From the NCBI RefSeq assembly GCF_056746865.1, contig NZ_CM163382.1: a DNA stretch of 64,000 nucleotides, one strand, 5' to 3'. This document shows positions 7,924-8,251 of this stretch, piece by piece; the first letter of the stretch is position 1; the number at the start of each line of letters is the position of its first letter. The notes below the pieces were generated by a model that did not search any database, was not told where the DNA came from, and saw nothing but the letters and a program-made list of their open reading frames with translations. The translations under genes were made by a program, and so were the position numbers.

Positions 7924-7948
7924 ACAAAAAAACACCCGTTAGGGTGTT
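7924..7948 (-). terminator. Rho-independent terminator of the tRNA-fMet operon
   Basis: Minus strand reads acaccctaacgggtgt followed by ttttttt, immediately downstream of the last tRNA. Confidence 0.55.
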
Positions 7949-7955
7949 CAATAAT

Positions 7956-8032
7956 TGGTTGCGGGGGCCGGATTTGAACCGACGACCTTCGGGTTATGAG
8001 CCCGACGAGCTACCAGGCTGCTCCACCCCGCG
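7956..8032 (-). tRNA. metV: Initiator tRNA-fMet (anticodon CAU), copy 3 of 3
   Basis: 77-nt minus-strand sequence CGCGGGGTGGAGCAGCCTGGTAGCTCGTCGGGCTCATAACCCGAAGGTCGTCGGTTCAAATCCGGCCCCCGCAACCA; anticodon loop CUCAUAA; encoded CCA. Confidence 0.95.
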
Positions 8033-8064
8033 TCACCGTACTGCTTTATTTCATCAAATTTGAT

Positions 8065-8141
8065 TGGTTGCGGGGGCCGGATTTGAACCGACGACCTTCG
8101 GGTTATGAGCCCGACGAGCTACCAGGCTGCTCCACCCCGCG
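8065..8141 (-). tRNA. metW: Initiator tRNA-fMet (anticodon CAU), copy 2 of 3
   Basis: Identical 77-nt tRNA sequence, 109 bp from copy 3. Confidence 0.95.
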
Positions 8142-8174
8142 TCACCGTACTGCTTTACTTCATCAAATTTTAAT

Positions 8175-8251
8175 TGGTTGCGGGGGCCGGATTTGAACCG
8201 ACGACCTTCGGGTTATGAGCCCGACGAGCTACCAGGCTGCTCCACCCCGCG
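8175..8251 (-). tRNA. metZ: Initiator tRNA-fMet (anticodon CAU), copy 1 of 3 (promoter-proximal)
   Basis: Identical 77-nt tRNA sequence, 110 bp from copy 2. Confidence 0.95.

Follow-up and report, generated by a model that had tools for sequence, protein, structure and literature searches.

Three of the initiator tRNA genes of Escherichia coli are transcribed as part of metZWV, an operon at 63.5 min, and the level of initiator tRNA tracks gene copy number (PMC3017606). The product of the fourth initiator gene, metY, is tRNAfMet2, with a different base at position 46 (Kapoor et al., 2010; PMC3017606). Without metZWV, cells grow more slowly and are cold-sensitive, and non-initiator tRNAs take part in initiation (PMC3017606). 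In the deletion strain, about 25% of the initiator tRNA is left and growth is about 20% slower (PMC8248024). Among the non-essential tRNA transcription units, a strong growth defect upon deletion is seen for only three, of which metZWV is one (PMC11480407). The major determinant for the formylase is the C1:A72 mismatch combined with pairs 2:71 and 3:70, and three anticodon-stem G:C pairs are a P-site feature (PMC5389676). A pathogenicity island or type VI secretion cluster downstream of metV (PAI-metV / T6SS) is already known as well.

The locus analysed here is almost certainly the E. coli metZ-metW-metV (metZWV) operon with three identical tandem initiator tRNA genes, as indicated by direct observation together with the literature, and no feature of the sequence speaks against this reading. 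In the window, by which we mean the whole 64-kb stretch of DNA that was analysed, ARAGORN detected three 77-nt tRNA-Met(CAT) genes on the minus strand, at 8251..8175 (copy 1, metZ), 8141..8065 (copy 2, metW) and 8032..7956 (copy 3, metV), and these are the only tRNAs in the window. Each copy scores 61.4 bits with the Rfam model RF00005 (E=7e-11). The three copies are mutually identical, including the encoded CCA, and 100% identical to metZ, metW and metV of K-12. Tandem Repeats Finder reported the array as a repeat with a period of 109 (2.8 copies, 97% matches, score 583), and a second repeat search gave three units of 109 nt each.

The array is flanked by the mltA and amiC ORFs. In the RefSeq annotation of both 2017C-4173W12 and K-12 MG1655 the gene order is recD-argA-amiC-[tRNA-Met x3]-mltA-tcdA-csdE-csdA, and the window agrees with these two strains in the argA-amiC-[3 tRNA-Met]-mltA-tcdA synteny. 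A 1-kb query around the array found matches in 5,425 of 5,426 complete E. coli genomes, with 100% identity to 2017C-4173W12. The homology arms of the published metZWV knockout (Kapoor et al.) have exact matches immediately on either side of the array, at 8252-8287 on the minus strand and at 7919-7955 on the plus strand. As a whole, the window is the reverse complement of positions 614706-678705 of NZ_CP030768 (2017C-4173W12) at 99.96-100% identity, from which it differs by one IS insertion, one 20-bp repeat unit and two SNPs.

The ARAGORN label 'tRNA-Met (cat)' does not separate initiator tRNA from elongator tRNA-Met or from lysidine-modified tRNA-Ile2 with a CAU anticodon, and both of these could hide behind such a call; Rfam RF00005 does not tell initiator from elongator either. 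The sequence of the genes leaves a negligible chance for either. The anticodon is CAU at positions 34-36 (given by ARAGORN as cat at position 35). The acceptor stem has a C1xA72 mismatch followed by G2:C71 and C3:G70 (standard tRNA numbering), as in initiators, and the 1:72 pair is marked as non-canonical in the alignment to the Rfam tRNA model (cmscan). The anticodon stem contains the three consecutive G:C pairs of initiators (G29:C41, G30:C40 and G31:C39), and the D stem has A11:U24. Elongator tRNAs carry a pyrimidine11:purine24 pair and initiators carry A11:U24. The 3' end is ACCA. The tRNA has G at position 46 and is therefore tRNAfMet1.

The K-12 elongator genes metT and metU share the CAU anticodon and the 77-nt length with the window tRNA, but they have G1:C72 and C11:G24, lack the three-G:C anticodon stem and have only 41 of 77 aligned positions in common with it. 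The features of an elongator tRNA-Met, a Watson-Crick 1:72 pair and an anticodon stem without three G:C pairs, were not found in the window tRNA, which is 100% identical to K-12 metZ/W/V and one base away from metY. The alternative of tRNA-Ile2 is excluded only via the initiator hallmarks. The initiator assignment is secure; the determinants were checked directly in the sequence.

Upstream of copy 1 the minus strand contains the elements of a promoter. The -10 hexamer TATAGT lies at 8265..8270, in the published -10 region, and from its position the hexamer TTGCAT at 8287..8292 can be read as the -35 element, at a spacing of 16 nt. Directly 5' of the -35 hexamer is an A8 tract (8295..8302, minus strand), which is invariant across a four-strain alignment and may function as an UP-like element. 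The -10 box is followed by a G+C-rich discriminator, GCGCATCC (8264..8257), then by ACGGA and the tRNA copies, which would place the transcription start near 8258-8256. By analogy with other stable-RNA promoters, the discriminator suggests stringent control. Exact matches within 8252-8287 were found for tgaaaacgcgagcggagtatagtgcgcatccacgga and tatagtgcgcatccacgga, the primers published for the metZWV knockout and its flank.

Two promoter-down mutations in the -10 region have been described, one inside the Pribnow box and one just upstream of it, and such single-base changes sharply reduce expression (Kapoor et al., 2010; PMC3017606). A consensus sigma-70 scan reported no promoter in 7700-8600, spacers included. 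The scan missed the promoter because the -35 hexamer TTGCAT matches TTGACA at only three of six positions, and the promoter assignment therefore rests on the published work and on manual reading.

The three genes are separated by an A/U-rich spacer of 33 nt at 8142..8174 (AUUAAAAUUUGAUGAAGUAAAGCAGUACGGUGA) and by a second spacer of 32 nt at 8033..8064, both read on the minus strand. The first spacer is presumably a region of endonucleolytic processing, a role that follows from what is generally known about the maturation of polycistronic tRNAs. The second spacer is 33 nt long in K-12, and the alignment shows a one-base indel and one substitution between the two alleles. The allele of the window is present at at least 99% identity in approximately 510 of the 5,194 genomes in which a tRNA-spacer-tRNA junction was matched.

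Downstream of copy 3, a terminator scan and RNAfold identified an intrinsic terminator at 7923..7949 on the minus strand, with a GAACACCC-UAAC-GGGUGUUU stem-loop (7949..7930) that precedes a U-run; in the DNA the T-run extends to 7926. The stem has 8 bp with four G:C pairs, the loop has 4 nt and the stem-loop is followed by T7 (dG -11.1 kcal/mol, RNAfold). The terminator region matches the published 3' knockout arm (7919-7955), and the scan detected no further terminator-like site in 7700-8600. The convergent amiC gene has its own terminator on the plus strand at 7883-7909 (11-bp stem, T7, dG -12.3), about 13-20 nt from that of metZWV.

The preliminary description of this DNA had claimed three identical tandem initiator tRNA-fMet genes with spacers of 32-33 bp, ending in a clear terminator. 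Our analysis agrees with all of this: the three ARAGORN calls, the 77/77 nt identity and the initiator determinants coincide, and both spacer lengths and the 8-bp stem with its T7 run are as claimed. The span of 7924-8251 given there fits the coordinates of the tRNA genes and the terminator, but it leaves out the promoter (about 8252-8302). The strand of the operon, which is minus, had been left unstated.

From these elements the following model of expression can be proposed. A single sigma-70 promoter would drive one minus-strand transcript that carries the three tRNAfMet1 sequences and ends at the intrinsic terminator; transcription of metZWV from a single promoter is taken from the literature. 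The precursor would be cleaved in the A/U-rich spacers, after which RNase P would probably trim the 5' ends and exonucleases the 3' side up to the encoded CCA, so that each transcript would release three copies of initiator tRNA. After charging by MetRS, the C1xA72 mismatch and the 2:71 and 3:70 pairs would direct formylation by Fmt, and the anticodon stem with its three G:C pairs would license entry into the ribosomal P site. For the K-12 tRNA of identical sequence, binding of the formylated Met-tRNA to IF2 and the P site has been established in earlier work (PMC3017606; PMC5389676). The triplication would act through gene dosage, with metZWV supplying about three quarters of the initiator tRNA of the cell and metY the rest. 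As is well established, the locus is important as the main supply of initiator tRNA, the dosage of which has effects on growth rate, cold sensitivity and the fidelity of initiation.

Several open reading frames run across the array on the plus strand. ORF 7996..8196 (66 aa) is antisense to the tRNA genes, ORF 8215..8403 (62 aa) lies opposite the promoter and tRNA copy 1, and ORF 8178..9557 (459 aa from a TTG) extends mltA at its 5' end by 94 codons (8178..8459); the ORF list also contains 7896..8063. With start codons and lengths of 62-94 codons, the first two ORFs and the mltA start at TTG 8178 might be taken for real coding sequences over the tRNA array, which we consider very improbable. 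There was no match to any Pfam family for the overlapping plus-strand ORFs or for the mltA extension, even at E<=1, and the plus-strand ORFs are not annotated in RefSeq for K-12 or for the near-identical strain 2017C-4173W12. What these ORFs encode is set by the antisense strand of a repeated tRNA: the motif RGPDLNRRPSGYEPDELPGCSTPR, which recurs in the ORF translations, is simply what each tRNA copy gives when its antisense strand is translated.

The real mltA gene covers 8460-9557 and encodes 365 aa beginning with MKGRWVKYLL, as the RefSeq start in 2017C-4173W12 and K-12 maps to 8460, and the lipoprotein signal peptide of MltA starts at this annotated ATG. All three ORFs named as spurious in the preliminary description are present in the ORF list, and the lack of Pfam matches and of RefSeq annotation bears out that judgement. 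For annotation, the genes should be labelled as initiator tRNA (metZ, metW and metV), and neither the antisense ORFs nor the long TTG-initiated form of mltA should be annotated as proteins. On the other side of mltA, the spacer towards tcdA (9558-9796, 239 bp) contains REP/BIME-like palindromes and a match to Rfam ES036 (CssrF) at 9679-9721 (46.5 bits); this spacer is only 77 bp long in GF54, ST648 and ATCC 25922.

For the comparison of copy number across strains, which had been asked for in the earlier reading of this DNA, 5,426 complete E. coli genomes were searched with three queries. Coverage of a 1-kb query was unfit for counting copies, as a genome with one copy still scored 95% through pieces that overlapped in the subject, and junction-specific queries were used instead. 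The 76-nt tRNA-spacer-tRNA junction matched at 10,303 places in 5,194 genomes (1-6 per genome, median 2), and the 172-nt spacer-tRNA-spacer query was covered for at least 80% in 5,002 genomes. The 77-nt tRNA itself was found at 21,174 places in 5,425 genomes (range 1-8); the median of 4 fits three metZWV copies plus metY.

Three or more metZWV copies are thus present in 5,002 genomes (92%), four or more in at most about 107 (up to 2%), two in about 190 (3.5%), and one copy, or a junction that was not recognised, in about 230 (4%). Three copies are the modal state (about 90%), to which the window conforms. At the extremes, strain GF54 has one metZWV copy and ECKH-505 has five in tandem. A natural loss of the array in ST648 (NZ_CP008697) was considered and rejected, since this 'complete' assembly has a single 'n' at the array site (position 6000, L003), which marks an assembly gap. 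Some of the low copy counts may therefore be artefacts.

The conclusion of Samhita et al. (2014), as cited through PMC9981150, makes natural copy-number polymorphism unsurprising. It is conceivable, though on balance doubtful, that this polymorphism reflects ongoing unequal recombination with selection tuning the dosage of initiator tRNA to rich and poor niches, and a niche-dependent tuning of this kind is predicted by laboratory competitions. Alternatively, the polymorphism could result from neutral drift or from assembly collapse.

The strains also vary in the sequence of the copies. In the lineage of ATCC 25922 (L004, 8122-8308), to which Nissle 1917 belongs as well, metZ and metW have a C17-to-A change in the D loop and metV keeps the C, so that the three copies are not identical there; an exact copy of the A17 tRNA occurs in 83 of 5,425 genomes. 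ATCC 25922 furthermore differs by a G-to-A substitution 3 nt upstream of the -10 box, which falls in the region of the laboratory promoter-down G-to-A reported 'just upstream' of the box and may or may not concern the same base. Only 365 of the 5,425 complete genomes contain an exact copy of the K-12-type tRNAfMet2 (A46; metY locus, e.g., L010, 4705-4781). This rarity of A46 means that the textbook pair of fMet1 and fMet2 is a minority state and that most strains resemble E. coli B.

The tandem arrangement extends beyond E. coli. Species-representative genomes were scanned for pairs of initiator tRNAs at a distance of 20-50 nt, which gave 108 loci; nearly all of these are from Enterobacterales, including Escherichia, Salmonella, Citrobacter, Enterobacter, Klebsiella, Kluyvera, Pectobacterium, Dickeya, Yersinia, Serratia, Edwardsiella, Xenorhabdus and Pantoea, among others. 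The tandem runs comprise two (n=47), three (n=55) or four copies (n=3), with spacers mostly of 27-52 nt. A homologue of mltA is present at 91 of the 108 loci and amiC at 72. The architecture of tandem initiator tRNA genes beside mltA is old and conserved. Outside Enterobacterales, Ferrimonas balearica (L048), Marinobacter nauticus (L056) and L109 have 5-6 initiator tRNA copies of nearly the same sequence (0-2 mismatches), arranged in two clusters about 111-113 nt apart; mltA and amiC were not found near these copies.

This conservation also bears on the question whether the repeats could be duplicated attachment sites left behind by mobile-element integration at a tRNA gene instead of a functional operon of several genes. 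There is indeed a hot spot at the 3' end of metV. While amiC-metV-mltA are contiguous in 3,461 genomes, as they are in the window, about 36% of E. coli genomes match only from the 3' end of metV onwards: their sequence diverges no more than a few bases past the CCA, and an island separates amiC from metV. ATCC 25922 has a type VI secretion cluster downstream of metV, with a divergence that starts about 3 nt past the metV CCA and replaces the terminator, and ST648 and ECKH-505 have a small PTS/sugar island at this place. In the window, however, there is no island: amiC follows directly, with its terminator about 13-20 nt from that of the operon.

All three copies are, moreover, full length and identical and not 3' fragments, and the arrangement of 2-4 full tandem copies beside mltA is conserved across the genomes of about 100 species of Enterobacterales. 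Deletion of the array removes about 75% of the cellular initiator tRNA (PMC8248024). An origin of the array as an integration scar is, in view of this, so improbable that we give it practically no weight, and we retain the reading as a functional metZWV operon.

Several further features were noted in the remainder of the window. A complete IS2 copy of 1,331 bp at 54289-55619, with an InsC-type ORF (54335-54745) and an InsD-type ORF (54703-55608), is flanked by a 5-bp target duplication CTAAA (54284-54288 and 55620-55624). It sits between the CRISPR array and ygcE and is absent from the near-identical 2017C-4173W12. The CRISPR array, of type I-E, lies between queE and ygcE at 53294-53871 (TRF core 53518-53731) with the repeat GAGTTCCCCGCGCCAGCGGGGATAAACCG and is likewise annotated in the matching RefSeq record; the annotation transferred to the window contains no cas genes. 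Just downstream of yqcA, a perfect 20-bp tandem repeat, GTAAATGCCGTTTTAGCGGT, is present in three copies (33169-33229). The four copies in 2017C-4173W12 identify it as a variable-number repeat. A 20-bp indel at 14764 inside rlmM had been a candidate for the length difference from NZ_CP030768 and was rejected, as there is a SNP at that position and the 20-bp difference is the repeat at 33169-33229.

Downstream of relA, mazG follows after less than 100 bp (44330-44408) and the mazE-mazF pair is absent in this strain; in K-12 this toxin-antitoxin pair sits between relA and mazG. The interval between eno and queE (about 48500-52100), in which the transferred annotation has four genes, one of the LemA family and three for TPM-domain proteins, looks like a variable accessory segment. 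Two small RNAs were matched at full length by Rfam: GcvB on the minus strand (12943..12738, 199 bits) and CsrB on the plus strand (31173-31532, 383 bits).

When set against the described systems, the locus differs from the strains with a PAI-metV / T6SS island (CFT073, E. coli W and ATCC 25922) in that the island is absent, while the tRNA array is the landmark in both; in ATCC 25922 the array is followed by another terminator and then by T6SS genes. K-12 metY likewise encodes an initiator tRNA, with a single-base difference (A46 of tRNAfMet2 versus G46 in the window), but it is a single copy at another locus, upstream of rimP-nusA-infB, and is co-transcribed with protein genes. The closest system is metZWV of K-12, which shares the position between amiC and mltA, the three identical 77-nt tRNAs with G46, the terminator and the promoter region from the -35 hexamer to the tRNA start. 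The differences are confined to one substitution further upstream of the promoter region, a few single-base differences in the flanks and the second spacer, which has 33 nt in K-12 versus 32 nt in the window plus one base substitution. The metZWV operon of the window is the already known, common three-copy form, which is its textbook state.
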